64,000 nucleotides of DNA, taken from contig JAWLHB010000012.1 of assembly GCA_041690595.1 (NCBI GenBank), forward strand, positions 36,785-100,784, in the 5' to 3' direction. The stretch is from Lentisphaeria bacterium (GTDB lineage: Bacteria > Verrucomicrobiota > Lentisphaeria > JABSQK01 > JAWLHB01). The notes beneath the pieces are model-generated. The model had not been told where the DNA came from and did not search any database. It worked only from the letters and a program-made list of their open reading frames with translations. Shown here one piece after another: positions 5,538 through 58,885 of this stretch (positions are counted from its first letter, which is position 1; each line of letters begins with the position of its first letter). The translations under genes and the position numbers were made by a program.

Positions 5538-8500
5538 TCAGTTATCCAGGTTCTTGTAGTAGTCGGAGACGATACCCCTGTAGTCCTCGTCGATGTCCTG
5601 CAAGCCCGTGTCGTCGCCGGCGCTTCCGCCGGATGCCTCGCTGCTGGAGACGCTCATTGGCAGAACAGCTCCCGAAGCAAGCTCTGTCTGCGTTTCCTGC
5701 AACTGCTTCATGACGCGCTGCTGCAGGCTGGCGTATTCCTTCTGATCCTTGTCCATGCGCTCGACGCGCCGCATATCCCGGGCCGCCTCTCCCAGCGGTT
5801 CGGTATTGTTCATGTAGAGGAGTCGTGCGGTGGCGTACATGGCTTCTGTTTCCTGGCGGAGCGCCTGATTTGCGGAGGGGGCCTGCATGTGCATGTCGCG
5901 GCGCGGGGCGTTGCCGAACATCCCGATGGTTTCAGATTCGCCGCCGAGCTTGCCACCGCCGGTGGCCCGCGCATCCAGAGTCGAATCCTCGGCCTCTTCC
6001 ACCTGCCCCTTCTGCAGGGGATCATTGGTCTTGCGCGCATGCGTTTCGCGTCCTTCCAACCCCTTCACGGTGTTTTCGACAAGCTCGCCAGTAGACTGCC
6101 CTTCGCGGCCCGCGCCACTGCGGCCGGTCATCTCGTTGTCATTCGGCTTGGTGTTGCCGGACTTCCCTTTGGCCGAAAAATTGGGCATCGGCCCGTCCAT
6201 CACGCCCCACCCCATTTCGGCATCCGCCATCATCTGGTTGCCGGTACTGTCCTGGGACTGCATATCGATATCGGCCGATTGATCGAGGAGGTCGCCAACG
6301 ATGTCTTCAAGCTCTTCCGGCAGATCGACGAGAGGCATGTCGGGAAATTCGGCGGCATCGAAGCTTTCGAGATCCCACTTGATATTGTCAGGAATGTCCG
6401 GAAGCCACATTTCGACATCCTCGACACGTTCCTTGGTGTTCTTGATCGCTTCGAGCAAGCCATCTTCCTTCTGCACGGCAATCTCGACGCTGGGCGCGTT
6501 CTCGCTGTTGGCTGCCTGCTCCACGTCCTCGTACACTTCGCGCATCTTGCTGTTGAGATCGTTGCTGACCGGGAGTTCCGGGAACTGGTAGAGATCCTGA
6601 GCCATCTTCTCAATCTTCTCCTGCCACTGCTTCTGCTCCTCGTCAAGCTTCGCCAGTTCCGCCCGCACCTTGTCATCGAGATTGCCCCGGCGGGTAAGAT
6701 CCTTAGTCACTTCCACAATCTCGTTCTGGCGCTTCTCCATGTCGGCAAGCTGCTCGGCAATGTCTCGCAACGTCATCGAGGCATCGGCTATGGACTCGCG
6801 GGCCTTCTCGACGCGCCACTTGTTCATGATCTTGAGCGCTTCCGTCAGCAGGCGCAGCGCCTCTTCCTCGGCCTGGATGCCGGCGGCCCAGTTGACCTGA
6901 CTCAGCTCGTCGGCCGCGGTGAGCATCTTCTCGTAGAGTCGGCCGCTGGTGAGCAGCACATGAACGTTGGCCAACTGCCGGGCAAAGCTGTCTTCGCTTT
7001 CCGCGTTGGCCATACGCTTGACGGCTTCGATGAAGAGAATCGCTTCGTCAGCCAGTTGCTCCTGGCGCCGCACCAGGAGAGCGACACCGTCCCCCTGCAG
7101 TTCGGCCTGCATACCGCTCTTCGTATCGGCCAGAAGCTCGCGCTGACGAGCGACCATGCGCTGCAGCTGCCCCAGAAGATCCGTCTTGTCCTTGTAGGAC
7201 TGCTCGTTGGCAAGGGCCGTGGGCAGCCCCGTCAGCACAGCCAGAATGCGCGCCTGGAGGGCGATGGCTTCTGCGAGAGGCGCCATGCGCTCCCGGTCCG
7301 GCGCCCGCGTCAAGGCATCCAAGGCCGCAACCGCCTGCTGCATCTCATTGGTCTCCAGTTCCCTGAGCGTGATCAGGAGATCCCCGAGGACCGCATCGTG
7401 CGTCAGGAGTTCAGCAGCCAGCCGGCGAATCTCAACCTGGGCCACCAGAAGAGGCGCCATGGCGGCAACGTCGACAGTGCTACTGCCGCCGGCAAGCTGA
7501 GTCTGCAGTTTGCGGCTGCCGGACAGATTCTCTTTCTGGAGTTGGATCAGGCGAGCAACGGAGCGTTCGCTTTCTGCCCGTTTGCCCTGGACGGAGCGAC
7601 GCTCTTCGTCCGGCAGCGGGATGACGATATCCATGAGCCGTGAAGCTCCCTGCCGTGCCTCGGCGGCAGGTCCGGCATCACGCGCCAGGAGGCGGAAACG
7701 CAGGCGGGAACCAGCTTTCGCCCCCAGCGCCGCCAGGTCGACTGCGAAATGGCCACGCATCTCCCGGCGAAGCTCGTCATTGCGCTCGACCGCAATCTCC
7801 TGATCGGCCCCATCCTTCTCCACGCGTACACAGAGGACAGACGCAACGCCGTACTCGTCGCGCGCCACGAAAGGCAAGGCGATGCGCTCGCCGGGCGCCG
7901 CGGTGATCTGGCGCAGGTCGGTGGCAAAGTCGACCGTCGGCCCGAGGTCGGGCAGGATGGTCAACGGCAGAGGAATGCGGGCATCGAGTCCCGCCGTCGA
8001 TACCAACCTCAACTGAAGTGGAGCGGTGCCCGGCACCGGGAAGGTGACACGAAAATCGGCGGCATCGGCCACGGCAGCAGCCTGAAGCTCGCGTCCATCC
8101 TGCAGCACGACGACCTGGCGAAGAGGCTGGGAGGACTTGCCGGTGAGCTGTACCTCCGCGCCCACGGGAATCCCCCCCTCCGGCTGCTCCGAGCTGAGCC
8201 TGCGTCGCGGCAGAGAGGTATAGGCAGGCGGTTGCACGTCCGCCGCCCAGTTCACCAGGGAAGGCGGACTCTGCACGCCGATTGTGAAGCGGGGGGAGCG
8301 GGCATCATTGGCAATGAACCAGTAGGTGGTGCTGTCGAAAAGCAGGGGAGTCTCGGCGGTGAAGCTCAGGGGCTCTCCGTCGACGGCAACGAGCATGATC
8401 TGCTTTGCCTCGCCACGCTCCGGTTGCACGACCAGCATCGGCTTGCGCGGCACTTTCCCTTCCAGGCGAACGCGAATGAGAGCCTTTTCTCCACGTGGGA

Positions 8501-20685: not shown

Positions 20686-20915
20686 ACCTGCCAGATAAGA
20701 TTTTCATGACCTCGTCTGCATAAAGAGGCGTGTGCAGCCCTATCCGCCGCCCCGCCTGGATATCCTTAACAAGCATAGCGCATCAACCGCAGAAGTACAA
20801 ATCCCTGCCCCACGATAAGGAAAAAGTTCTTTACCCGCGGCGGTAGCCTCCCGTTGCTCTCGCATCGTCGCCCTTCGGCATGCCGGATTTGTACGAGATT
20901 CTCTCGGGCGCTGGG

Positions 20916-20963: not shown

Positions 20964-21037
20964 GCGGGTATAGCATAGTGGTAATGCTCCAGCCTTCCAA
21001 GCTGATTAGAAGGGTTCGATTCCCTTTACCCGCTCCA
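20964..21037 (+). tRNA. tRNA-Gly (anticodon TCC), 74 nt with encoded CCA
   Basis: Manual cloverleaf: acceptor GCGGGTA/TACCCGC, D-arm GCAT-AGTGGTA-ATGC, anticodon loop CTTCCAA (U33, TCC, A37), T-arm AAGGG-TTCGATT-CCCTT, discriminator U, CCA. One C·A mismatch at the top of the anticodon stem. Confidence 0.85.
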
Positions 21038-21226
21038 CTTCCCCCCTCCGACCTCCGCAACTCCCTGCCTCCCCAGCAGGATACCTTGCCCAGCTCCCCA
21101 CCCTTCCGCCATTGGCGCAGTGGTGTTTGACTTGCCGCTACCGGCGGAATGCTCGATTAGCTAGCTATTGCCAGCCCCATTCCAGGGCGCCGGAAAGCGA
21201 TTTACGCCCGATAGGCGGTTTGCGCA

Positions 21227-21256
21227 GAGCGGGCGGATTCTTATACCCGCTCCACT
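21227..21256 (+). repeat. Relic duplicate of the tRNA-Gly termini. The 13-bp TACCCGCTCCACT is an exact direct repeat of the tRNA 3' end (21027-21039), preceded by GAGCGGG, forming a mini acceptor-stem hairpin
   Basis: Exact 13-bp repeat 210 bp downstream of the tRNA. gagcgggcggattcttatacccgctcca mimics the tRNA 5' and 3' ends with the body deleted. Confidence 0.6.
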
Positions 21257-45510: not shown

Positions 45511-46779
45511 TCAGAACTTGTAGATCGCGTCCATCTGGTAGAGGTTCGCCTCATTCTCCCCCTCGATTTGCTCGAGAAGCATGGCCGTGGCACCTAGTGA
45601 GAAGTTCTTGGTGAGCTTGTAGCTGGCGCTCAACTTGTGGCCTTCCACATTCGTGTTGTAGAGCCCGGCGGTATCGCCGAAGTCGGAATCCTTGAGGAAA
45701 GGCGGCGCCGAATCGGCCTCCACATAGCCGTAGGCATAGCCCAGGCTCCAACTGCCGACCTTTGCGCCGATGCCGGCCGTCCAACCCAGATCCTCATCTT
45801 CAGGCGTCAACCCTGACACATTGCTGGCAGTGCCGTCCGCGCCAAAGTTGCTCCAGACGTCGCCGAAGAGCGACAGGGTCGCCTTGTCCAGCTTCAGCGA
45901 AAGCTCCCCGTACAGGTCGCCGATATGGTAGTCATACTCCGAACTGAACGGCGTGAGCAGCTCGCTGGTCTGCGCATCATAGTAGTAGTATGCCGCCGCA
46001 ACCTTCGCCTTCATACCCTTGCCAAGATCGCCACCCCAGCCGAGCTGCGCTGCCACCAGCGATGCATTGTCGCCGTTGCTGTCGCCGTTATCGCTGGCAT
46101 AGAGCACCTTGTATGCGCCCATCGTGGCAAAGAACCCGGCCATGTCACCAGTCACCGTTGCGCCAGCGGGCCGGACATCGCCGTCCCAAAGCAGAAATGA
46201 CGAGACAAAGGGGTTCGACTGCTGGCCCAGGATCACCGCCACCTTGCCGTCATCACCCTTCCACGTGTGCTTCGCATAGGCATAGTCGATCCGCAGGTCG
46301 CCGGTATCGAAGGGGCCACTGTCCGACCAAGTGTCGTTTGTACTCGTCGCGTCCGATCCGCCCGACGCCACCCCGACCCCGATCTCCCAGCCTTCCTCGG
46401 CGGCCCAAACGCCCCCAAGCCGGAGCCGGGTACGGAAGCGATCGCGAGTCGTCTCCGTGCTCTTGTCCACATCCCGTGCCTCATACCGCAGGCGAAGATC
46501 GCCCTTGATCTTCAGATTCGAGATGTGATCGCTCAGCTTGATGCCCCCGCCACTGCTACGCTGCGAAGGATCCACCGCCCGATCCACTTCCTCGCGGATC
46601 TGTCGCGAAAGCTGACCCTGATTCTCATTGAGCTGTCGACGCATGCTCTGGATCTCCGACTGCTGCTGCCGGATCTCCTGTTGCATCTGCTCGATCTTCT
46701 TCAGGATCTCATCATTCTCAATCGCCCACAACGAGGCGCTCAGCGCCAAGGTCACAGTCAGTACAAAAAATCTCTTCAT
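45511..46779 (-). CDS. Outer-membrane beta-barrel porin-like protein with N-terminal Gln-rich coiled coil
   Basis: Signal peptide MKRFFVLTVTLALSASLWA, alternating amphipathic beta-strand pattern, C-terminal aromatic residue (…IYKF). Confidence 0.6.
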   Translation of the reverse strand: MKRFFVLTVTLALSASLWAIENDEILKKIEQMQQEIRQQQSEIQSMRRQLNENQGQLSRQIREEVDRAVDPSQRSSGGGIKLSDHISNLKIKGDLRLRYEARDVDKSTETTRDRFRTRLRLGGVWAAEEGWEIGVGVASGGSDATSTNDTWSDSGPFDTGDLRIDYAYAKHTWKGDDGKVAVILGQQSNPFVSSFLLWDGDVRPAGATVTGDMAGFFATMGAYKVLYASDNGDSNGDNASLVAAQLGWGGDLGKGMKAKVAAAYYYYDAQTSELLTPFSSEYDYHIGDLYGELSLKLDKATLSLFGDVWSNFGADGTASNVSGLTPEDEDLGWTAGIGAKVGSWSLGYAYGYVEADSAPPFLKDSDFGDTAGLYNTNVEGHKLSASYKLTKNFSLGATAMLLEQIEGENEANLYQMDAIYKF

Positions 46780-47214
46780 GATTTTCCCTCACTCCTTAAG
46801 GTATTACCGAGATGATCTTCACAACACCCTCGCCTCTCAACTGGGGTTTGACGAGCCCCCGCACGTTCCACACCAGCCTCCCTTGGTTTCGCGTTCCACT
46901 GCATCTGGTTCAGCAAACGAGTATACCCTAAGGCTCTCTCAGCACTCCCGCTCGGCGCTACGGTTAAGACCCCGTAAAGATCCCGCTAATCCCCCATTTG
47001 CCCCTCACCCAGCATTGCTCCAACGGAAGGAGGAGGACACTCGACAACCGCAACAGGCACTCAAACATCCTGTACATTTCGATGTTCTTCAAGCGTCAAC
47101 GGACAGGACACCCACTTTGATCCCCTGAGCGTGAGAAATTGGGTGCTCTGCTGGTTTCTTCTGGAACGCAACCTATACTAAACGTCGTTGAAGCATCCAC
47201 ACTATAACGAGAGC

Positions 47215-48270
47215 ATGAACATGGCAATTGGTCATCTGGAGGCCAGACTATTCACCGTTTTCTCGAAGATCGACTTGGACTTCTCTCCCGGTATCAACGT
47301 CATCATCGGAGAGAATAGCACGGGCAAATCACACCTGATGAAATTGCTTTACGCCGTGAGCCAAGTGCTCTTCACCTCCGAGAAAGAAGGTGAGCGCAAG
47401 CTGCTTGAAGCCGAACTCCACAAGAAACTGGTGAACACGTTTAAGCCGGATGAGGGAAAGCTGGGGCGGCTTGTGCAACGTAGCCGTGGTCGAGCCACAG
47501 CGAGAATGAATATCAGGTTCGGCACTGGTGGTTTCAGCTTTCGATACACCACGCTCTCCAATCTTGCCATTGAGCAGGTCGGTGCAAGACAAGAGGATAA
47601 TCCTATCTTCATACCCTCTCGGGAGGTCCTTGCCATCTACCCCGGCTTTGTGCAAGCCTACGAGAATCGGGAACTGGCATTCGATGAAACGTACCGGGAC
47701 ATATGCGTCGCGTTGAGCGGCTCCCTTACGCGAGGCCCACGGCAAGAGAAGATCCAGGACCTCGTATCGCCACTTGAAAAGCGTCTCGGTGGTAAGGTCG
47801 TACTGGACAACGATCGCTTCTTCGTCAAGGCCAGAGATGGTAATATCGAGGCACACTTGCTCGCGGAAGGTCTTCGCAAGCTCGCCAGTATAGTCTTCCT
47901 CATCAACAATGGCTCGCTCACCGAGCGCAGTATTCTTTTCTGGGACGAACCGGAAGCCAATTTGAATCCCACCCTCGTCAAGCTGCTCTGCGATGTCCTG
48001 CGCCAGCTTGCCAATAGCGGCATGCAAATTTTCCTCGCTAGCCACGATTACCTGCTCACTCAGGAGCTGGCCTTGGCATCCGAGTACAAGACAGAGCCCC
48101 ATGTGCCAATCCGCTTCTTTGCCCATAGCCGCAACGCAGAGGGCCACGTTGACATAGAACAAGCCGATGATCTCGCCGAGTTACGTAACAACGCCATTCT
48201 GGAGGAGTTCGCCGCACACTACGACCGGGAAGCCATGCTCTTTGCAGAACGTGCGGAGGTCCAGAGATGA
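47215..48270 (+). CDS. AAA_21/ABC-type (SMC/RecF-like) ATPase of the kind found in abortive-infection/defence modules
   Basis: Walker A GENSTGKS, signature-like LAEGLRKL, Walker B SILFWDEPEANLNP, H-loop IFLASHD. The track ORF starts at TTG 47188. ATG 47215 or 47221 is more likely. Visibly lower G+C than the flanks. Confidence 0.7.
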   Translation: MNMAIGHLEARLFTVFSKIDLDFSPGINVIIGENSTGKSHLMKLLYAVSQVLFTSEKEGERKLLEAELHKKLVNTFKPDEGKLGRLVQRSRGRATARMNIRFGTGGFSFRYTTLSNLAIEQVGARQEDNPIFIPSREVLAIYPGFVQAYENRELAFDETYRDICVALSGSLTRGPRQEKIQDLVSPLEKRLGGKVVLDNDRFFVKARDGNIEAHLLAEGLRKLASIVFLINNGSLTERSILFWDEPEANLNPTLVKLLCDVLRQLANSGMQIFLASHDYLLTQELALASEYKTEPHVPIRFFAHSRNAEGHVDIEQADDLAELRNNAILEEFAAHYDREAMLFAERAEVQR

Positions 48271-48842
48271 GCCAGGAAATAGTCGAAAAGCAGATAAAGT
48301 ACGTCTTTGGGGATTCCTGGCGAATTTTTAAGTACGACGAGCATCCTTTTTATACCGGCCGGCTGGTTCCACTAGCGGGAAAGGTCAAGAAGAAGACCGT
48401 CTCCACCACCGGCATCGATCTTGCTGGAAGCTGCGGCAATCGTCTATTCCTAGTCGAAATCAAGGATTTCGCAGGATTTCCACGTGAGCGAGCACGCATC
48501 ACCAGCGGCGAACTGGCACTGGAAATCGCCATCAAGGTGCGTGACTCCATCGCCGGCCTGATCGCCGGGGCTCACCACCCCAACTGCAAGCCTCACAAGA
48601 CATGGGAGGCCGTCGCTGATCACCTCTGCAACGCTCCCCACGCCATTCAAATTATTCTTTGGCTCGAGGTCGACATGCTGCCACCAGCCCTCAAGCATAA
48701 GCAGATGATGAGCACCTTTGGCAACCAGCTCAAGCAAAACATTCGCAATTGGTTACCAGCTAGCGTCTTCGTGCTCAATTTGCAGACGTACGAATCCATA
48801 ATACCAGACATGGAAGCTTTCCGCTTGAGCATGCCGGGATGA
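48267..48842 (+). CDS. Small (191 aa) protein of unknown family with a PD-(D/E)xK-like motif (putative nuclease partner of the ATPase)
   Basis: Start overlaps the ATPase stop (ATGA). TGIDLAGSCGNRLFLVEIKDF gives D-x12-E-x-K spacing typical of restriction-endonuclease-fold nucleases, with an upstream acidic YDEH. I recognised no other family. Confidence 0.5.
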   Translation: MSQEIVEKQIKYVFGDSWRIFKYDEHPFYTGRLVPLAGKVKKKTVSTTGIDLAGSCGNRLFLVEIKDFAGFPRERARITSGELALEIAIKVRDSIAGLIAGAHHPNCKPHKTWEAVADHLCNAPHAIQIILWLEVDMLPPALKHKQMMSTFGNQLKQNIRNWLPASVFVLNLQTYESIIPDMEAFRLSMPG

Positions 48843-48944: not shown

Positions 48945-50312
48945 TCAGGAGCCTGTGCGCTTTGCGAGGCGGAGGGTGAAGGTGGAACCCTTTTCGAGCT
49001 GGCTTTCGACGGTGACGGTGCCACCGTGGACGCGCATGATGTGTTTCACGATCGACAAGCCAAGGCCGGTGCCGCCGCTCTGCCGGTCGCGGGATCGGTC
49101 CACGCGGTGAAAGCGCTCGAAGATGCGCTCCAAGTGTTCGCGGGGAATGCCGATGCCTTCGTCGCGCACCGTCAGGACGGCATGCTGCTGCTCCTCGCGC
49201 AGGCGAATCGTCACGGTCGCGCCATCCGGGCTGTACTTCACCGCATTGTCGATCAGATTGGCGATGGCCTGCTCGAGGAGGCGATGATTTGCGTAGACCT
49301 GGCATGGATCCAGCTCGACGATGGCGGCGATATTGCGCTCGCGCATCTTCGCTTCGTAAGGGCGCAGGGCATTGGCTGTCGTCACGGCCAGATCCTTCCG
49401 CTCGAACTCCTGGGCCACCCATCGGTCGGCTTGCTCCAGGCGCGAGAGGGTCAGCAGGTCATCGACGATGGCGTTGAGGCGCTCCGCCTGCTGCGCGATA
49501 ATGGTGACGAAGCGCATGGCCTGCTCGGGCGCCCCCTCCAGGCAGCCGCCCAGAGTTTCGATGAAGCCCTTGATGGAGGTGATCGGCGTTTTCAGCTCGT
49601 GGGAGACATTCGCCACGAACTCTTTGCGCATCTCTTCGAGGCGGCGCACCCGGGTGACGTCGTGCATCACCACCAGCGCTCCGGGGGCGGCCCCCTGCTC
49701 ATGGACGAATCGTACACCCGATAGCCGATAGACCGTGACAACGTCCGCCGTACCGCGAACCTCCATCTCCTGCTGCAGGTGATCGGCACCCTCCGTAAGC
49801 AGCTCATCGACGAAGTGGGTAAAGGTGGCATTGCGCACCACGGAAAAGAGGGGTCGTCCGGCAATGGATTCCTCATCGGACAAGCCGAAATAGAGATGGG
49901 CCGCCTGGTTCATCGCCAGGAGGTTCACCTCGTTATCGACCGCCAGAATGCCTTCTCGCATACCGGTGAAGAGGGCGATCCACTGCTGCTTCTCCAGTTG
50001 GAGATCGCTCACCTGGGTCTCCAGCGCTTCCGCCATCTCGTCGAAGGCAGCGGTCAAGGGAGCCAGCTCCAGCCACGGATTGGCCGGACTTCGCGCGCGC
50101 CAATCCCCCTTTCCCAGGCGCAGCAGCCGATCCTCGAGTTGCGCCTGCCAGTAGGTCAGGAGCCGGATCAGGAGGAGACTGACGAGCAAAATGCCGATAA
50201 TCGCCGTCACCGCCCCGATGAAGGGGCTCCAGAACAAGGCGCAGCCGCCCGCCAGCAGCAGAACCAGCAGGAGTCGATTCGCCAACCACCAGTATAGGGA
50301 TTGCCTGCGCAT
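48945..50312 (-). CDS. phoR: Phosphate-regulon sensor histidine kinase
   Basis: TM-PAS-HisKA (VANVSHELKTPITSIKGF)-HATPase. Immediately downstream of phoB/phoU/pst genes. Confidence 0.8.
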   Translation of the reverse strand: MRRQSLYWWLANRLLLVLLLAGGCALFWSPFIGAVTAIIGILLVSLLLIRLLTYWQAQLEDRLLRLGKGDWRARSPANPWLELAPLTAAFDEMAEALETQVSDLQLEKQQWIALFTGMREGILAVDNEVNLLAMNQAAHLYFGLSDEESIAGRPLFSVVRNATFTHFVDELLTEGADHLQQEMEVRGTADVVTVYRLSGVRFVHEQGAAPGALVVMHDVTRVRRLEEMRKEFVANVSHELKTPITSIKGFIETLGGCLEGAPEQAMRFVTIIAQQAERLNAIVDDLLTLSRLEQADRWVAQEFERKDLAVTTANALRPYEAKMRERNIAAIVELDPCQVYANHRLLEQAIANLIDNAVKYSPDGATVTIRLREEQQHAVLTVRDEGIGIPREHLERIFERFHRVDRSRDRQSGGTGLGLSIVKHIMRVHGGTVTVESQLEKGSTFTLRLAKRTGS

Positions 50313-50315
50313 GAA

Positions 50316-51011
50316 TCAATCCTTGAACCTGTAGCCGACTCCCCGGACCGTTTCGATCACCACTGCGTGATCGCCCAGTTTACGCCTCAGGGAGACGATG
50401 TGGACATCCACCGTTCGCTCGGTGATCAGGACGTCCTCGCCCTGCGCCTCGTCGATGATGCGCTGCCGTGTGTAGACACGCCCTGGGTTGGACGCCAGGA
50501 AGCGCAGGATCTTGAACTCGATCGGCGTCAAACAGGCTTCCTGTCCATGTACCAGCACTTCGTGCCGATTGGGGTTGATGGTGATGCTGCCGCGCGTCAG
50601 CACCGGCTGATCCTCGGTCGACGCGGGCTCACTCTCGGCCCGACGCCGCAGGACCGCCTTGAGGCGCGCCAGGAGCACCCTAGGGCTAAATGGCTTGGTG
50701 ACATAGTCATCGGCCCCGACTCCCAGCCCGATCACCTCATCCGTCTCCTCGCTTTTCGCGGTCAGCATGACTACCGGAACTCGCTTCAGGCGGTCGTCGC
50801 TGCGCAGCTTGTAGCATACCTGATAGCCATCGATGCCGGGCAGCATGAGGTCGAGGATGATCAGATCGGGTGGGTGGGCCTGGGCCAGGCGCAGGCCAAG
50901 CTCGCCATCGCCAGCCAGCTCCACGTCATAGCCGTCATTCTCCAGATTGAATTTGAGCAGCTCGCGGATCGACTCTTCGTCTTCAACGACCAGCACTCTG
51001 GTTTTTGCCAT
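50316..51011 (-). CDS. phoB: Phosphate-regulon response regulator (OmpR/PhoB winged-helix)
   Basis: Receiver (VLVVEDEESIRELL...DLIILDLMLPGIDG) plus OmpR-type C-terminal domain (…VSLRRKLGDHAVVIETVRGVGYRF). Confidence 0.8.
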   Translation of the reverse strand: MAKTRVLVVEDEESIRELLKFNLENDGYDVELAGDGELGLRLAQAHPPDLIILDLMLPGIDGYQVCYKLRSDDRLKRVPVVMLTAKSEETDEVIGLGVGADDYVTKPFSPRVLLARLKAVLRRRAESEPASTEDQPVLTRGSITINPNRHEVLVHGQEACLTPIEFKILRFLASNPGRVYTRQRIIDEAQGEDVLITERTVDVHIVSLRRKLGDHAVVIETVRGVGYRFKD

Positions 51012-51716
51012 CTATCCCTCCCTTGCCTGCCGTCTGGGCAGGTCATTCCTGTTGTTCTCGTCTTCCAGATGGTGACGAATGATGCGTCCTTCCACCATGT
51101 AGAAGACATCCTCCGCGATATTGGTGGCATAGTCGGCGATACGCTCAACGCTGCGGGAGACAGAGATCAGGAAAAGATAAGCCGGCGCGTTCTCCGGCTC
51201 CGCGATCACCTGCCGCCGAAGCCCGTGGATCAACTCCACATTCAATTCATCAATAGCGTCATCCTGCCGGCAGACCTGCCGCGCCAGGGTTGAATCCGCA
51301 TTGACCATCGCATTCAGGCTGAGCCGCACCTGGTTGAGTGCCTTGGTGAAAATGGTGCGAAAACGATCGGGCACCGTGACTGGATCGAGCTTGGCGATCT
51401 CGATCACGTACTCGGCGATGTTGACCGACAGATCCCCCATCCGCTCCAGGTCGTTGTTCATCTTGAGGACCCCGACCACCATGCGCAGATCGGCGGCCAC
51501 CGGCTGATAGAGCGCCATGATCTTCAGGCAGTCCTCCTCGATGTCCACCTCCAACTCGTCAATCACGGTATCGTTGGCGACGACCGCCCGGGCCTTGGCG
51601 GTATCGAGATCGGCCAGGGCCTCGTAACTCAGTTCGATGCTCTGCTCCACCTCGGCGCTAAGCTCGACGATGCGCTTCTTGAGCTTAGTGGTTTCGCGCT
51701 GCAAATGTGTTATCAT
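51012..51716 (-). CDS. phoU: Phosphate-transport system regulatory protein PhoU
   Basis: Two PhoU repeats (…DDAIDELNVEL…, …DLERMGDLSVNIAEYV…). Confidence 0.85.
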   Translation of the reverse strand: MITHLQRETTKLKKRIVELSAEVEQSIELSYEALADLDTAKARAVVANDTVIDELEVDIEEDCLKIMALYQPVAADLRMVVGVLKMNNDLERMGDLSVNIAEYVIEIAKLDPVTVPDRFRTIFTKALNQVRLSLNAMVNADSTLARQVCRQDDAIDELNVELIHGLRRQVIAEPENAPAYLFLISVSRSVERIADYATNIAEDVFYMVEGRIIRHHLEDENNRNDLPRRQAREG

Positions 51717-51737
51717 GCCATATCTACCTTGTGAGGG

Positions 51738-52523
51738 TTATCCAAAGCGTCCAGAGATGTAGTCTTCCGTCTGTCTCTCGCCGGGATTGCGGAAGATCTT
51801 CTCGGTGAAATCGTACTCGATGAGCTTGCCCAAGTAAAAGAATGCGGTACGATCGGAAACGCGTGATGCCTGCTGCATGTTGTGCGTCACAATAACGATG
51901 GTAAAGTCTTGCTTCAACTCCAGGATGAGTTCCTCGATGCGACTGGTGGCGATGGGATCGAGGGCGCTGCATGGTTCGTCCATGAGAACGATCTCGGGCT
52001 CGTTGGCAATCGCTCTTGCGATGCAGAGGCGCTGCATCTGCCCGCCCGACATGCTCAGCGCGCTCTCGTCCAGCCGGTCTTTGACCTCGTCCCAGAGAGC
52101 TGCCGAACGCAGGCTGCGCTCGACGACCTCGTCCAGATCGCGCTTCTGTTTGCGACCGGCCACCCGCAGCCCGAAGACCACATTTTCATAGATCGACTTG
52201 GGAAAGGGATTCGACTTCTGGAAGACCATCCCCACCCGTCGGCGCAGCCCGATGACATCACGCAGTGGATCGTAGACGCTGTGCCCGTTGATCAGAATAT
52301 CCCCGTGATGATGAACCCCGTCGATCAGGTCGTTCATGCGGTTAATGCTCCGCAGCAGGGTAGATTTACCGCACCCGGACGGGCCGATGAAGGCGACGAT
52401 TTCGCGCTCCGGAATCTTCAGATTGTTCCCGAAGAGAACCTGATTATCGCCGTACCAGAAGTCGTAGTTCTGGATATCGATGATCGGGTTCTCGATGGTG
52501 GTTGCCGCACTCTTGTTGATCAT
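51738..52523 (-). CDS. pstB: Phosphate ABC transporter ATP-binding protein
   Basis: [25 protein letters not shown]-type signature, Walker B. ATG 52523 with upstream GGAG preferred over 52556. Confidence 0.9.
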
Positions 52524-52536
52524 GCTTGTAACTCCG

Positions 52537-54246
52537 TCAAAAAGCGCTGGTTGCATACTTGCGCCGCAAGTGTTCTCGAATGATGATGGCGGTCAGGTTG
52601 AGCACCACCACCAGCGCGATAAGCAGAAGCGCCGTCGCGAAAACCATGGGTTTGGCCGCCTCGGCGTCAGGTGATTGAAAACCGAGATCGTAGATGTGAA
52701 AGCCCAGGTGCATGAACTTCTGGTCGAGGTGGATAAACGGATAGTTGCTGTTGACGGGCAGTTCCGGGGCAATCTTCACCACGCCTACCAGCATCAGCGG
52801 CGCCACCTCGCCCGCGCCGCGGGCCATGGCCAGAATGACGCCGGTCAGGACGCCGGGCGCCGCCGCCGGCAGAACGACCCGCTGAATGGTCTGCCAACGC
52901 GAAGCGCCGCAGGCCAGGGCGCCTTCCCGCGTTCCCCGCGGCACCGCCGCCAGCGCTTCCTCCGAGGCGACGATGACCACTGGCACCGTCAGCAGCGCCA
53001 GCGTCAGCGAGGCCCAAAGAATGCCTCCCGTGCCGAAGGTGGCGGTCGGCAGCCGGTCCGCATAGAACAGCTCGTCGATCGTACCACCCATCCCCCAGAC
53101 AAAGAAGCCGAGTCCGAAGACACCGAAGACGATCGAGGGCACGCCAGCCAGATTGTTGATGGCGATGCGTACCATGGCGACCATCGTCCCCTGTTTGGCA
53201 TACTCCCGCAGGTAGATCGCGGCCACCACCCCGAAAGGGGTCACCAGCATGCTCATCAGTACCGTCATCACGAAGGTACCGAAGATAGCCGGCCAGATGC
53301 CCCCTTCGGTATTCGCCTCCCGCGGCTCCTCCGAGACGAAGCGCCATATCTGCCAGAGGAAGTGGCCCAGCCGCTGCAGCAGGTTCATCTCGTTCGGGTA
53401 GGTGTAGTCGATCACCTCCCCCATGCTGATCTCGTGTTCGCCACCGCTGACCAGCCGATAAACCAGCCGCTGCCGGTTCAGCTTTTCGCGTAATTCTTTC
53501 AATTGCGCTTCGAGGACCTCGAACTCCACCTGCAACGCGGCCAGGCGGGCTGTCAGCGCCTCCCGTTTCGGCGTGTCGGTCGCACCGCCCGATGCCTCGG
53601 CACGATTCATGGAGCGCAGCTCCAGGTTGATCGCGGTCATCGCCGTATTGATGCGGCCGATCTCCTTTCGATCCAGCTGGTGAATCTGCCGCCGCCCATC
53701 GCTCACCTCATCCAGTGCCGCCGCCAGCGCCTCGCGAAAGCCGTCCGACGCGGCTTTTATCTCGGTGCCGTCAGCCGAACGCAGGGCCACGGGCAACGCG
53801 AGCACATCGCCATACTCAGCCCGTTCGATGGCGATGGCATCCGGCAGCAGTTCCATCTCCGCGATGAAGCTGGTGTCAATCCAGATAAAGGAGCCGTCAT
53901 AGAGCTCGCGGCTGCCAATGAAGAACTGCGTCTCTTTCTGAGCGGGAGCGAGATCTCCTTGCGCATCCATCTCCCGGCTCATCTTCCGGCGGCTCTCCAC
54001 GAGCACTCCCGCGAAGCGCGGCTCCTCGCCGAATCGTCGCTGCAGCGCCGTCAGCACCGGCTCTGGAAGATCCTTCGCCAGTTCCACGGCCATGATCGGC
54101 TTCGGCCAGAAGACGTTGAGCCCCTTGACGACGATCAGCCCCAGCATCAGGACAATCATGAGCAGCCCGATCGTGATGCCCATCGACGTCAGCCATACCC
54201 AGGCTTCCCCCTTCGGCTGAACCAACTGTTTGCCTTTCTCAGTCAT
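52537..54246 (-). CDS. pstA: Phosphate ABC transporter permease PstA, long form with N-terminal coiled-coil/periplasmic insertion
   Basis: C-terminal region matches PstA (…[17 protein letters not shown]…). ATG 54246 with GGGAG 7 nt upstream chosen. Confidence 0.8.
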
Positions 54247-54265
54247 ACAATCTCCCGCCCCGAAG

Positions 54266-56542
54266 CTAGATAGTCTTGTACTTGCCACGCAGGTGCTGAC
54301 GCAGCAGCTCTGCCATGGTATTGACGATGAAGGTCATGAGGAAGAGCAGAAATCCACCCAGAAAGAGTGTGCGGTAGAGGGTTCCTTCTTTCGGCGCTTC
54401 CGGCAGCTCGACGGCGATATTGGCGGAGAGCGTGCGCATGCCCGAGAAGATGTTGAGGTCGAGGAGCGGGGTATTGCCCGTCGCCATCAGGACAATCATG
54501 GTCTCGCCAACCGCCCGCCCCAGGCCGATCATAATCGCGGAGAAGATGCCCGCCGACGCGGTGGGCAGCACCACCCTTAACGCCGTCTGCCAGCGACTAG
54601 CGCCCAATGCCAGCGAGGCGCTGCTCAGGCTCCGCGGCACGTTCGACAGCGCATCCTCCGCGATGGTGAAGATGATCGGGATGACGGCGAAACCCATGAT
54701 AAAGCCGACCACCAGCGCATTGCGCTGCTCGAAGCGGTTCCCCGTCACCGCCGGCCACCAGAGTCGGAAATCAGCCACCTTCCGCCCGGCGTCCGTCTCG
54801 ATGACGAAAAAGATGCGCTCGATGACGGGTCCCAGATACCAGGCCGCGATCCAGGTCAGCACCAGGATCGGCAGAAAGCCGATGAACTCGAATCCATCGG
54901 GACAAAGCAGGCGTGTCCGCTTTGGCAGCCTTGACCAGAGCGCGCCAGAGAACATCGCTACCACGGGTATCGCGATCACGAAGAGCAGAAAGCTCGGCAC
55001 CCGCGTCTCGACGATCGGCGCCAGCCACAGCGCCGCCAGAAAACCCAGGACTACCGACGGCAGCGACGCCATGATCTCCATCGTCGGCTTCACGTAGCTC
55101 TTGAATTTGGGATGTTGAAACTGGGAGACGTATATCGCCCCCAGCAGCGCTATCGGCACCGCGAAGAGCAGCGCGTAGATCGTCCCCTTGAAGGTCCCGA
55201 CGATCAGCGGTATCATCGACAACTTCGGCTCGAAATCGTCGCTCGCGCCCGTTGACTGCCATTTGTACTCGGGCTCGGGATTTCCTTCGTACCAGATGCG
55301 GCTGAAGTAGGCGGCGAAGCCGGCTTCCGGATGGGGATCGTTCAGCGAGAAGAGGTGCAAGTTGGACTGATTATCGAGCAGCAGGATCCTGTCGTACTTG
55401 CCGGAGACTGCCGCCAGCCGCGGCTCATAGTCGAGCCGCTTCTTCCAGCGAACGGATGCCGTCGTCGCATAACGCAGGCTCACCTGGTTGCCATGGCCGA
55501 TAAGGAAGCCCTTGTTCCGCAAGCTTTTGGCGTAGACACTGGGCGCCCCTTCCAGCGGCGGAAACTCCTTCGTCTTTCCCCAGAGCATCTTGCCGACATC
55601 GTCGTGCATATAGAGGCTGAAGCCATAGCTCACCCCGTCGCTGTTGGTGAAGAGCACCGTCGTGTCGCCGAAGAGAAAGTTCATTTTTGCCAGCGGGGCA
55701 GCGTCGCTGCCCTCGAAGGGGCGAATCAGTTGCCGCAGCTCCACTTCGCCCGCCACAAACTGGAAGTAAGCCACCTCGTCGCGATCGTTCCGCACAAGGA
55801 TGCTGCGCCCATTCTGGCTGACCAGCACCTCTTGCGGCACACCGGGCAGCTCCGCCGTCAGATCCATCATCAGGCCGACTTCGATCTCCCCCGGCCCCAT
55901 CAGCGACATCGTCTGCGTCAGGGTGGCCATACGCAAGTGCCTCTCTCCGTCCGCGCCTTCCGTGATGCCGACGATCACCTTGCTCCGATCGGCCCCCGCA
56001 TAGGCGATCGCCAAAATCGCCTCGCCCCGCTCCCCCAGCGGATACATGTTGCCGGGCCGAAGCTCGACATCCACAACCCGGCTGCCTGTCGAGAAGTTGG
56101 CCGAGTAGACGATGTCCACGATGACGAACTCACCCAGCGCCGTTCCGTAGATCAACTGCTGCGTCTCCTGCCCATACGTCACCGAGGTCACCTGGTGATC
56201 GCGGAGGAAGTCAAGCTCTGGAACCAGCGTTTCCGTCCCTTCGTCGAGTCCCGGAAAGAGCAGCCGACCATCCCGGCGAAGAACGAAGGGCCGCTCGGTC
56301 CATTCATCCACGCCCAGCGCCAGGTAATCACCCGGGGGGATGGCCGCGGTGCGCAGTTCCTTGATCTGCGCACCGCGGAAGAGCGGCAGAATTTCAAGCA
56401 GGATGAAGACGAAGATGAGCATCACGGTGAGGATAACCAGAAGACCGCCCGCGCGGATGAACTGGTTCATGAACTTGTCCGCCATCAGCGTCACCTTCGA
56501 CGCCGCGAAGCGGTTCTCCCATTGCTTGTCTCGCTTCATCAT
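54266..56542 (-). CDS. pstC: Phosphate ABC transporter permease PstC, long form (~758 aa) with large extracytoplasmic insertion
   Basis: C-terminal permease core (…GLGRAVGETMIVLMATGN…) is typical of PstC. The N-terminal half is an extra beta-rich domain. Confidence 0.8.
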   Translation of the reverse strand: MMKRDKQWENRFAASKVTLMADKFMNQFIRAGGLLVILTVMLIFVFILLEILPLFRGAQIKELRTAAIPPGDYLALGVDEWTERPFVLRRDGRLLFPGLDEGTETLVPELDFLRDHQVTSVTYGQETQQLIYGTALGEFVIVDIVYSANFSTGSRVVDVELRPGNMYPLGERGEAILAIAYAGADRSKVIVGITEGADGERHLRMATLTQTMSLMGPGEIEVGLMMDLTAELPGVPQEVLVSQNGRSILVRNDRDEVAYFQFVAGEVELRQLIRPFEGSDAAPLAKMNFLFGDTTVLFTNSDGVSYGFSLYMHDDVGKMLWGKTKEFPPLEGAPSVYAKSLRNKGFLIGHGNQVSLRYATTASVRWKKRLDYEPRLAAVSGKYDRILLLDNQSNLHLFSLNDPHPEAGFAAYFSRIWYEGNPEPEYKWQSTGASDDFEPKLSMIPLIVGTFKGTIYALLFAVPIALLGAIYVSQFQHPKFKSYVKPTMEIMASLPSVVLGFLAALWLAPIVETRVPSFLLFVIAIPVVAMFSGALWSRLPKRTRLLCPDGFEFIGFLPILVLTWIAAWYLGPVIERIFFVIETDAGRKVADFRLWWPAVTGNRFEQRNALVVGFIMGFAVIPIIFTIAEDALSNVPRSLSSASLALGASRWQTALRVVLPTASAGIFSAIMIGLGRAVGETMIVLMATGNTPLLDLNIFSGMRTLSANIAVELPEAPKEGTLYRTLFLGGFLLFLMTFIVNTMAELLRQHLRGKYKTI

Positions 56543-56560: not shown

Positions 56561-57517
56561 TTACTGGAGTTGGTCGAGTGTCTGTTTGGCAATGGAAGCC
56601 GGGATGGGGAAATAGCCATCCTTGACGACGATTTCCTGCCCTTCCTTGCTCAGGACGAAGGTGAAGAACTCCTTCACCAGCAGATCGATCTTTTCGTTCG
56701 GCGAATCATTGACATAGACATAGAGGAAACGCGCCAGCGGATACTTGCCGTTCAGCGCATTCTCGGATGTGGGCTCAGCCCCCTCGCCGCCTTCCTTGGA
56801 CAGCTTTACCGCCCGCACACCGGAGGTCATGTAGCCGATTCCCGAGTAACCGATGCCACCCAGATCGCTCGCGATCCCCTGCACCACGGCGGAAGATCCG
56901 GGCTGCTCCTTGACCGTCCCGCGGAAGTCCCCCTTGGCGAGCGCGTTCTCCTTGAAGAAGCCGTAGGTTCCCGAGGCGCTGTTGCGGCCATAGAGGGAGA
57001 TCGGCAGGGCTGCCCACTGTCCCGTCAGCCCCAGATCGCCCCAGTTCGTTATCTCCTTGCCCCCGAGCTTGCGGGTGCTCGAGAACATGCCGTCGATCTC
57101 CTTCATGCTCAACGATTCAATCGGGTTGTCCTTGTGCACGAAAACGGCCAGCGCGTCAATGGCCACCTTGATCTCCGTCGGTTTGTAGCCGTGCTGCGCC
57201 TCGAACTTGTCCAGCTCGGTCGATTTCATGGCGCGGCTCATGGGCCCCAGTTGCGCGGTACCCTCGATCAATGCCGGTGGGGCGGTGGACGATCCCTTGC
57301 CTTCGATCCCGATGCGGACATTGGGGTAGATCTTGCGGAACCCCTCCGCCCAGAGCGCCATCAGGTTGTTCAGCGTATCCGAGCCCACGCTGTTGAGATT
57401 GCCAGACACGCCACTGACCGGCTTGTACGACGGAAGATCCGGATCGACCTTCACTTGCGCGCTCGCCAGCCCCAGCGTCAACACCATGACATAAAGAGAA
57501 ACTATCACTTTCTTCAT
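56561..57517 (-). CDS. pstS: Phosphate-binding protein PstS (periplasmic)
   Basis: Signal peptide MKKVIVSLYVMVLTLGLASA from ATG 57517 (AGGAG 8 nt upstream). …SGTYGFF… PBP motif. Confidence 0.85.
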   Translation of the reverse strand: MKKVIVSLYVMVLTLGLASAQVKVDPDLPSYKPVSGVSGNLNSVGSDTLNNLMALWAEGFRKIYPNVRIGIEGKGSSTAPPALIEGTAQLGPMSRAMKSTELDKFEAQHGYKPTEIKVAIDALAVFVHKDNPIESLSMKEIDGMFSSTRKLGGKEITNWGDLGLTGQWAALPISLYGRNSASGTYGFFKENALAKGDFRGTVKEQPGSSAVVQGIASDLGGIGYSGIGYMTSGVRAVKLSKEGGEGAEPTSENALNGKYPLARFLYVYVNDSPNEKIDLLVKEFFTFVLSKEGQEIVVKDGYFPIPASIAKQTLDQLQ

Positions 57518-57642
57518 TTGCAGGACTCCTCTACCAAATGTAGGTTTCGCAGGATTCGAGAAGGGGATAGATGATATCATCCCTTCCAGAAGTAGTATGC
57601 CCCCACTCTGCCTGGCTACCATGGCTTCAGCGCAAGGGATGA

Positions 57643-57672
57643 GTTAAGGAACCGTTAAGGAATTATTAAGAC
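57643..57672. promoter_or_regulatory. Pho-box-like element: GTTAAGGAA repeated at 11-bp phase (GTTAAGGAAcc GTTAAGGAAtt aTTAAGacg) in the divergent pstS/nagA-like promoter region
   Basis: Two exact 9-mers and a third partial copy at exact 11-bp spacing (57643, 57654, 57665), ~125-150 bp upstream of the pstS start. Confidence 0.45.
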
Positions 57673-57673
57673 G

Positions 57674-58885
57674 ATGGATTCGAGTACGTATCGCGGCAGA
57701 CTTGCCAATGGGGAAGCGGTGGAACTGCACGTGCGGGATGAGCGCATCACCTCCCTCACCTCCCTGCCGCCCGATTCCTCGCTGCCATGGCTCTTCACCC
57801 CACTCGTCGACTTGCAGCACAATGGCGCCCTCGGCATGTATTACCACAACCTGCCGACGGTCGACGCCCCCGCGGCCCTGAACGCCATCGCCCGCCATCT
57901 GCGCCGGCACGGCGTCGGTCGCTGCATGCTCACTTTCGCCACAGCCCCTTTCGACCAACTCATCGAGGCGGCCCGTCAAGTGGGGCTCGCCCTCGATGCC
58001 GACCCTGACCTGGCGCGCCTCTTCCCCGGCATCTTCCATGAAGGACTCTACATGTCCCGGCTCGAAGGGTGGCGCGGCGCTCATCCCCTACCCTACCTGC
58101 GGCCGCCCGATTATGCCGAACTGCGACAGGTCGATGCTGCTTCCGGTGGCCGTATCCGCATGGTCAACATCGCGCCCGAGCTGGAGGGGGGCATGGATTT
58201 CATCCACGATGCCATCGCCGATGGCAAAGCCGTCACCCTCGGGCACTGCCGGCCCGATCGCGACATCGTGGATCGTGCCATCGCGGCTGGAGCCCGCTGG
58301 GTGACGCACTTCGGCAATGGCGCCGCCACCACCATCCATCGCTTCGACAATCCCTTCTGGATCTTTCTGGATCGTCCGGAACTGACGATGGGGATCATCT
58401 GCGATGGCTTCCACCTGCCGCGTGAAATCGTGAGCGTCGCGATGCGCTGCAAAGGCAGGGCCAACTGCATCCCTGTCTCCGATGCCAGCGGCTATGCCGG
58501 CTGCCCGCCCGGCATCTATACCGACTCCACCTATCGGGATTTCGTCATCGAACCCAATGGACACCTGCACCTGGCCGACAGTGAAATTCTGATGGGCGCC
58601 TGGTTTCAGCTCGATCGGGCGGTCGAGTTCCTCGTTCAGCAGCTCGACTTCTCCCTGCCCGAAGCGTGGGATCAATGCAGCCGCGTTCCGGCCGAAGCCG
58701 CCGGCCTTTCGCTGCCTGAGCTTGCTCCCGGTGGCGAGGCCAGCTTCGTCATCGCCAGATGGGAGAGCGACCGCCTTCTCATCGAACAATCGATCGATCG
58801 CGGCCGCCCCCTGCTCGAGGCGCCCATCCGTACCAACGAGTCAAGCCCCTCCATCCGCGCTTTGCCCCATCGCGAACTCGCCTGA
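57674..58885 (+). CDS. NagA-like amidohydrolase (N-acetylglucosamine-6-phosphate deacetylase family, single-metal Q-x-N subtype)
   Basis: LVDLQHNGALG (as in E. coli NagA DVQLNG), GHCRPDRDIVDRAIAAGARWVTHFGNGA, ICDGFHL. Confidence 0.6.
   Translation: MDSSTYRGRLANGEAVELHVRDERITSLTSLPPDSSLPWLFTPLVDLQHNGALGMYYHNLPTVDAPAALNAIARHLRRHGVGRCMLTFATAPFDQLIEAARQVGLALDADPDLARLFPGIFHEGLYMSRLEGWRGAHPLPYLRPPDYAELRQVDAASGGRIRMVNIAPELEGGMDFIHDAIADGKAVTLGHCRPDRDIVDRAIAAGARWVTHFGNGAATTIHRFDNPFWIFLDRPELTMGIICDGFHLPREIVSVAMRCKGRANCIPVSDASGYAGCPPGIYTDSTYRDFVIEPNGHLHLADSEILMGAWFQLDRAVEFLVQQLDFSLPEAWDQCSRVPAEAAGLSLPELAPGGEASFVIARWESDRLLIEQSIDRGRPLLEAPIRTNESSPSIRALPHRELA

Follow-up and report, generated by a model that had tools for sequence, protein, structure and literature searches.

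The array of phased direct repeats at 57643-57672 of the analysed DNA (a stretch of 64,000 nucleotides, here called the window) is most likely a Pho box, through which the phosphate-starvation response regulator PhoB would control the pstSCAB-phoU-phoBR operon for phosphate uptake in an uncultured bacterium of the PVC group, and it is most likely an ordinary example of a well-known type of control element in a little-studied lineage. The sequence features that characterize such an element are present, namely an 11-bp phase, the orientation, a pstS target, the conservation of the motif among related promoters and, in the pstS operon itself after phoU, the genes of a cognate PhoB/PhoR system. 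The array and the genes that flank it are as follows.

57643 to 57672, minus strand: Pho-box-like array upstream of pstS, with the units CTTAAT (57670-57665), CTTAAC (57659-57654) and CTTAAC (57648-57643).
56561 to 57517, minus strand: pstS, a phosphate-binding protein gene and the first gene of the operon (Pfam PBP_like_2, 9.5e-35).
48945 to 56542, minus strand: the rest of the operon, pstC to phoR, assigned with Pfam.
54266 to 56542, minus strand: pstC, coding for a long product of 758 aa.
52537 to 54288, minus strand: pstA, also coding for a long product (583 aa).
51738 to 52556, minus strand: pstB, assigned with Pfam.
51012 to 51716, minus strand: phoU, which passes TIGR02135.
50316 to 51011, minus strand: phoB, for which the best NCBIfam model is TIGR02154 PhoB (253 bits).
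48945 to 50312, minus strand: phoR, with PnpS and PhoR as best matches.
57674 to 58885, plus strand: divergent gene for a NagA-like amidohydrolase, whose 5' leader and ribosome-binding region overlap the array.

On the plus strand, 57643-57672 reads GTTAAGGAA-CC-GTTAAGGAA-TT-ATTAAGAC. The two exact 9-mers lie at 57643-57651 and 57654-57662 and have no further exact copy in the 64-kb window, and a third, partial copy, identical at 6 of 8 positions, follows at 57665-57672, all three copies keeping an 11-bp period. A preliminary description of this DNA had reported the two exact copies and the partial third at 11-bp spacing, had placed the array about 125-150 bp 5' of pstS and directly against a nagA-like ATG, and had given the gene order as pstS-pstC-pstA-pstB-phoU-phoB-phoR, and each of these statements holds. 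By measurement, the array lies 126-155 bp 5' of the pstS ATG at 57517, a start codon that is preceded by GAGGAG and that yields a 318-aa product identical to the NCBI-called protein P0001. Its other end is 2 nt from ATG 57674 of the NagA-like gene, a start backed by the alignment of 11 homologues with a common N-terminal xYxGR motif, and the gene order is borne out by both Pfam and NCBIfam. The choice of GTTAAGGAA as the functional unit has to be given up, since the minus strand, which is the sense strand for pstS, gives (T)CCTTAAC instead. Read in the sense of pstS, the array is CTTAAT-aattc-CTTAAC-ggttc-CTTAAC in a notation of 6+5 nucleotides, or CTTAATAA-ttc-CTTAACGG-ttc-CTTAACTC in a notation of 8+3. 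A search of the pstS leader against Rfam gave no match. Copies of GTTAAGGAA with a single mismatch, found at 20762 and 20814 near a tRNA-Gly gene, were set aside as lone units that form no phased array. The 3' end of the tRNA-Gly(TCC) gene (20964-21037) is repeated exactly 217 bp downstream as the 13-mer TACCCGCTCCACT (copies at 21027-21039 and 21244-21256, plus strand; about 0.06 copies expected by chance), and this repeat may be the relic of an attachment site used by an element that integrated or was excised.

The phosphate-binding protein encoded next to the array is assigned with some margin, at 271.5 bits against NCBIfam TIGR02136 (cut-off 206.6), whereas the 253 bits of PhoB, a protein identical to P0242 of the NCBI-called set, fall below the equivalog cut-off of TIGR02154 (296.2 bits). 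A search of the PDB returned generic OmpR-family relatives only (RegX3, RpaA, MtrA), which are uninformative on DNA specificity.

A scan of both strands of the 64 kb for three CTTAAC units at a period of 11, scored as matches out of 18, returned only two loci with a score of at least 14: the pstS site, which is the top match of the window at 17/18, and a site 5' of a Porin_5 gene, at 15/18. The scan consensus was taken from the pstS site itself, and the independent evidence consists of the porin site and of other loci only. In 200 shuffles a score of at least 15 was never reached, and scores of at least 14 occurred on average 0.035 times per window. The preliminary description had proposed looking for the motif 5' of other phosphate-starvation genes; this search gave the one further site at the porin gene, and genes at which the rest of the proposal could be followed (phoA, phoX, phoD, ppk, ugp) are absent from the 64 kb.

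46963 to 46990, minus strand: second Pho-box-like array, with the units ATTAGC (46990-46985), CTTTAC (46979-46974) and CTTAAC (46968-46963).
45511 to 46779, minus strand: gene for a Porin_5-family outer-membrane porin (Pfam PF16930, 2.3e-26).

Written with its linkers, the second array is ATTAGC-gggat-CTTTAC-ggggt-CTTAAC. It is located 184-211 bp 5' of the porin ATG and is co-oriented with the porin gene, as the first array is with pstS. No NCBIfam model was found for the porin. Its homologues lie directly after phoR in locus L081 (15906-17237; 47% identity) and immediately 5' of pstS in L169 (12692-13999), in L003 from Kiritimatiellia (1756-2856) and in L002 from Verrucomicrobia (1757-2899), and because this gene order is conserved in related loci, the porin can be tied to the phosphate system. 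It is thus likely, judging from gene order and the second array, to be a member of the Pho regulon, and the comparison suggests that it serves as the phosphate-starvation porin of the PVC-type group.

Between phoR and the porin gene of the window, at 47188-48842 on the plus strand, there is a two-gene cassette whose strand is opposite to that of its neighbours and whose GC content is 0.56, relative to about 0.61 elsewhere. The product of the first gene is an AAA_21/AAA_15 ATPase of 360 aa with HEC-02A as its best PADLOC match (1.1e-98); that of the second, 191 aa long and lacking a Pfam match, is hit by the PADLOC models HEC-02B and HEC-02A at 8e-18 and 8e-17. Because the porin gene follows phoR directly in L081, the cassette is an insertion, and it resembles a candidate anti-phage system of the HEC-02 type gained by horizontal transfer.

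Comparative evidence comes also from other loci. Related loci were picked by the similarity of either PstS or PhoB, the nearest loci with usable DNA being taken, and units were read in the sense of the gene that follows them. PhoB similarity reflected relatedness better than PstS similarity, which was a poor indicator of it. A PstS search of genome contigs gave 80 loci of 59-69% identity from many phyla, among which TTAA-N7-TTAA was found 5' of pstS in L043 only, and in L082-L084, with PstS proteins of 69-70% identity, the synteny differs and the motif is missing 5' of pstS. A metagenome scan with TTAAYNNNNNNCTTAACGGNNNCTTMAM matched at least 80 loci, none of which, among the matches listed, adjoined a pstS, phoU or porin gene by tblastn; these matches are chance-level noise. 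Phased C(C/T)T(A/C)AC units are carried by nine related PVC loci (L081, L167, L168, L169, L003, L002, L019, L049 and L043), where they sit 5' of pstS, porin or phoB genes in promoters that are otherwise unalignable. These sites, together with a tenth locus that has a weaker one, are listed here with percent identity of PhoB where it applies; a distance in nt separates the last unit from the -10-like hexamer that follows.

L081 (PhoB 74%), 5' of pstS: CTTCAC/ATTAAC/TTTAGT/CCTCAC.
L081 (PhoB 74%), 5' of the porin gene: ATTAAT/CTTAAC/CTTCAA, containing the decamer CTTAACGGTT, identical to the window.
L167 (PhoB 64%), 5' of pstS: CTTAAC/CTTAAC/TTTAAT/GTTCAC, then 15 nt and TATACA.
L168 (PhoB 62%), 5' of pstS: CTTAAT/CTTAAC/ATTAAT/GTTCAC, then 14 nt and TAGTAT.
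L169 (PhoB 61%), 5' of phoB: CCTCAC/TCTAGC/CCTCAC, then 8 nt and TATAGT.
L169 (PhoB 61%), 5' of the porin gene: CCTAAC/ATTTGC/CCTCAC.
L169 (PhoB 61%), 5' of pstS: TCTCAC/CTTAAC/GCTAAC.
L003 (Kiritimatiellia), 5' of a porin-pstS operon: TTTCAC/TCTCGC/CCTCAC/CCTAAC.
L002 (Verrucomicrobia), 5' of a porin-pstS operon: ATTTAT/TCTCGC/CCTCAT/CCTAAC.
L019, L049 and L043 (planctomycetes), 5' of pstS: phased pairs CTTCAT/CTTCAC, CTTCAT/ATTCAC and ATTAAC/CTTAAC, respectively.
L165 (PhoB 72%), 5' of pstC: a weak two-unit site only.

The position and orientation of the pstS array are matched in L081, L167, L168 and L169. In L167 and L168, which lie outside the definition of the query, the best match of the whole locus is the region upstream of pstS, with 15/18 against three CTTAAC units and 17/18 against the looser CTTMAY; for these two, shuffles predict 0.003-0.013 matches per locus with a score of 14 or more. 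The recurrence of the phased triplet 5' of the Porin_5 gene and in related loci supports the original reading of the array as a Pho box. A 15/18 match was also met in L084, a locus of unrelated synteny, where it lies antisense within the phoB coding region (7315-7342, plus strand). It was taken as a chance match, and such scores can arise singly outside promoters.

An operator for another regulator of the OmpR family, or for some other tandem-binding factor, such as a regulator of envelope stress or of porins, which would happen to control both pstS and the porin gene, is an unlikely alternative. In its favour, 11-bp phased direct repeats are generic for the OmpR/PhoB family and porins are classic OmpR targets. 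The regulator of the operon could itself be questioned on its score, 253 bits against a cut-off of 296, and its scores against the MtrA, CreB and RpaB models are comparable. Against such an operator, each of the related loci has the motif with its pst and pho genes, the phoB gene of L169 included. Autoregulation of phoB occurs in E. coli, and the array 5' of phoB in L169 would be its parallel. Moreover, the operon-encoded PhoB is the sole response regulator conserved in all of these loci, and the core of the array matches a validated Pho box, that of cyanobacteria.

The array might instead serve the NagA-like gene, as part of its leader and Shine-Dalgarno region or as the operator of a sugar regulator, in which case it would stem from an 11-bp tandem duplication and play no part in the phosphate response. 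Its end 2 nt before a homologue-backed start codon invites this explanation, as does the AAGGA contained in each copy and placed, in the second of them, 12 nt from ATG 57674. We consider it very improbable. The phased motif is found at pstS and porin genes in L081, L167, L168 and L169 with no NagA-like neighbour, it is found 5' of the porin gene of the window itself, and it is missing upstream of the NagA-like homologues in L170-L172; because it is present without a NagA-like neighbour and absent in L170-L172, the motif follows pstS rather than the NagA-like gene. The NagA-like protein, for its part, scores 102 bits against the NCBIfam nagA model, relative to a cut-off of 225.65.

As to chance, the repeat by itself is statistically unremarkable and within expectation: when the window was shuffled 300 times with its dinucleotide composition preserved, an exact 9-bp repeat at offset 11 turned up once or more in 29% of the shuffles (on average 0.33 per window), and 14 or more matches within 19 bp at this offset turned up in 58%. 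By our own arithmetic, the chance of such a repeat within the 156-bp pstS intergenic region is about 0.33 x 156/64,000 = 8e-4, and the repeat rises above chance only because of its place in the pstS control region and because of the comparative evidence. Period 11 is also specific, as strict CTTAAC triplets scoring at least 14/18 gave 8 matches at this period, in 4 of 5 loci, relative to 1 match altogether at periods 7-10 and 12-15. (The degenerate triplet CTTMAY was dropped as a statistic; it catches codon periodicity at periods 9, 12 and 15.) A tandem repeat without function, produced by chance or by slippage, is accordingly hardly credible in spite of the frequency of such repeats in shuffled DNA, given the location in the pstS control region, an independent second site expected less than 0.005 times per window, the retention of motif, phase and orientation in related promoters that otherwise cannot be aligned, and the specificity for period 11. 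Among several offset-9 repeats met during the calibration of chance is an exact 9-bp tandem repeat, CACCTCCCT-CACCTCCCT, at 57747-57765 on the plus strand in the coding region of the NagA-like gene, where it specifies the peptide TSL-TSL.

The geometry of the promoter that a PhoB-bound array would serve can be read in two ways, which depend on two further elements.

57632 to 57637, minus strand: CCTTGC, which may be a degenerate fourth unit that keeps the phase of the three strong ones (tentative).
57594 to 57599, minus strand: alternative -10-like hexamer, CATACT, 43 nt 3' of the last strong unit.

Beyond CCTTGC, after 13 nt, comes TGG-TAGCCA (57621-57613), which resembles an extended -10 element, and the two together would tentatively reproduce the layout of L167 and L168, where the last unit (GTTCAC) precedes a -10-like hexamer by 14-15 nt. 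In L169 phoB and the L081 porin promoter the last in-phase unit is 8-10 nt before such a hexamer, and all four of these layouts are classical, with the Pho box in the -35 region. The window matches a -35 layout only if CCTTGC and TGG-TAGCCA are used; otherwise a gap of 43 nt is left. CATACT is the better -10-like hexamer of the two, and the porin promoter of the window is similarly arranged, with TATACT 37 nt after the last unit. With CATACT as the -10 element, the array would lie not over -35 but at about -56 to -84, which is atypical for PhoB. A scan of 57400-57800 for consensus sigma-70 promoters found none. At 57593-57599 two -10-like hexamers on opposite strands overlap, TAGTAT at 57593-57598 of the plus strand and CATACT at 57599-57594 of the minus strand. 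Were the two both in use, divergent transcripts would start back-to-back, and the leader of the NagA-like gene would cross the Pho-box array.

In this family of regulators, each 11-nt unit takes up one PhoB effector domain, and the domains, arranged head-to-tail, contact RNA polymerase. We propose that phosphate limitation would lead PhoR to phosphorylate PhoB, the effector domains of which would then occupy the array head-to-tail along one face of the helix, one for each 11-bp unit, each unit consisting of a 6-8 bp core of the CTTAAC type and a linker of 3-5 bp. PhoB bound in this way would recruit RNA polymerase, or stabilise it, so that pstS is transcribed leftward, and it would probably activate the nearby Porin_5 gene as well, via the second, weaker array. 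On the other side, because the array ends 2 nt before ATG 57674, PhoB would sit on the leader of the NagA-like gene, covering its ribosome-binding region also, and it may repress that gene. We infer PhoB binding, activation, the position of the promoter and the effect on the NagA-like gene from what is established for this family.

A more far-reaching possibility, which we regard as doubtful, is that the array acts as a bifunctional, bidirectional operator, at which phosphorylated PhoB would activate pstS leftward and also block either transcription through the NagA-like gene and the FtsW/RodA gene that lies downstream of it on the plus strand, or the initiation of their translation. The same low probability attaches to the companion idea that PhoB of this lineage would activate from upstream, at about -56 to -84, in a class-I-like manner, an idea suggested by the similar distances, 37-43 nt, to TATACT at the porin gene and to CATACT at pstS. 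If the bifunctional operator were real, it would link phosphate starvation directly to the metabolism of amino sugars and of the cell wall.

Pho boxes are textbook elements, and the proposed mechanism adds nothing new to what is understood of them. The use of these observations lies elsewhere: the C(C/T)T(A/C)AC arrays of three to four units, from about a dozen promoters, provide a usable seed matrix for the prediction of Pho regulons in the PVC group, suited to PVC genomes assembled from samples of environments in which the scavenging of phosphorus matters ecologically. In our search of the literature, no Pho box was found defined for free-living PVC bacteria (Planctomycetes, Verrucomicrobia, Lentisphaerae and Kiritimatiellia), and the only experimentally derived PhoB motif found for the PVC group was that of Waddlia chondrophila, a member of the Chlamydiae, for which ChIP-seq gave (T/A)NTNAA(G/A)AAANTGN(T/A)AAATTT (PMC4989314). 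The authors of that study called the PhoB regulons of other PVC members undefined (PMC4989314). The Waddlia motif is unlike the CTTAAC array; its targets are not pst genes, and its regulator is specialised for an intracellular lifestyle.

[quoted passage not shown] The box of E. coli has two 11-bp units, each with CTGTCAT and a 4-bp A/T-rich linker, 10 bp 5' of the -10 element (PMC4415409), and PhoB was found bound head-to-tail on it by Blanco et al. 2002, according to the summary of that work in PMC4415409. The array of the window shares with the E. coli box the 11-bp phased direct repeats, their co-orientation, the pstS target and a cognate PhoB/PhoR pair, and four of the related promoters (L167, L168, L169 phoB and L081 porin) also resemble it in having the last in-phase unit 8-15 nt from a -10-like hexamer. 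In contrast, its CCTTAAC is identical to CTGTCAT at only three to four of seven positions, its linkers are GGTT and AATT rather than A/T-rich, and, unless the weak TGG-TAGCCA is used, 43 nt separate the array from the nearest -10-like hexamer of good quality. The PHO box of Streptomyces coelicolor, which is bound by PhoP, consists of 11-nt direct-repeat units with the core GTTCACC (PMC4415409). Units of 11 nt in variable number are common to it and to the arrays described here, and its core recurs in part among the relatives, GTTCAC being the unit closest to the promoter in L167 and L168, and CTTCAC occurring in L081, L019 and L049. The units of the window itself have TTAAC, not TTCAC, and both the phylum and the name of the regulator differ.

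The preliminary description had held that the consensus differs from the E. coli CTGTCAT and would define a lineage-specific Pho box. The first part stands and the second does not, the core being of the cyanobacterial SphR type. Because TTAAC, TTCAC and GTCAC units are mixed in the pstS promoters of Acidobacteria, Rokubacteria and other phyla, what seemed a consensus of one lineage is a shift of preference within a continuum rather than a new box. SphR is the PhoB orthologue of Synechocystis PCC 6803, and the part of PMC1906773 that deals with its box, tracing it to Suzuki et al. 2004, describes at least three tandem 8-bp units of CTTAACCT, separated by 3-bp linkers and located 47-403 bp 5' of start codons. 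Of the known boxes it offers a close parallel, as the window has a CTTAAC core (17/18), three 8-bp units with 3-bp linkers on the sense strand 5' of pstS, and a distance of 126-155 bp that lies inside the published range. It departs from CTTAACCT at unit positions 7-8, which are GG, TC or AA instead of CT, and its relatives mix in CCTCAC and GTTCAC units. Nor is the host a cyanobacterium; that it belongs to the PVC group is indicated by a DUF1559/N_methyl protein, by NagA-like homologues labelled Lentisphaerae or Verrucomicrobia, and by PhoB relatives labelled Planctomycetes or Phycisphaerae. The likeness to the SphR box would thus be one in how the element works and not one of lineage membership.
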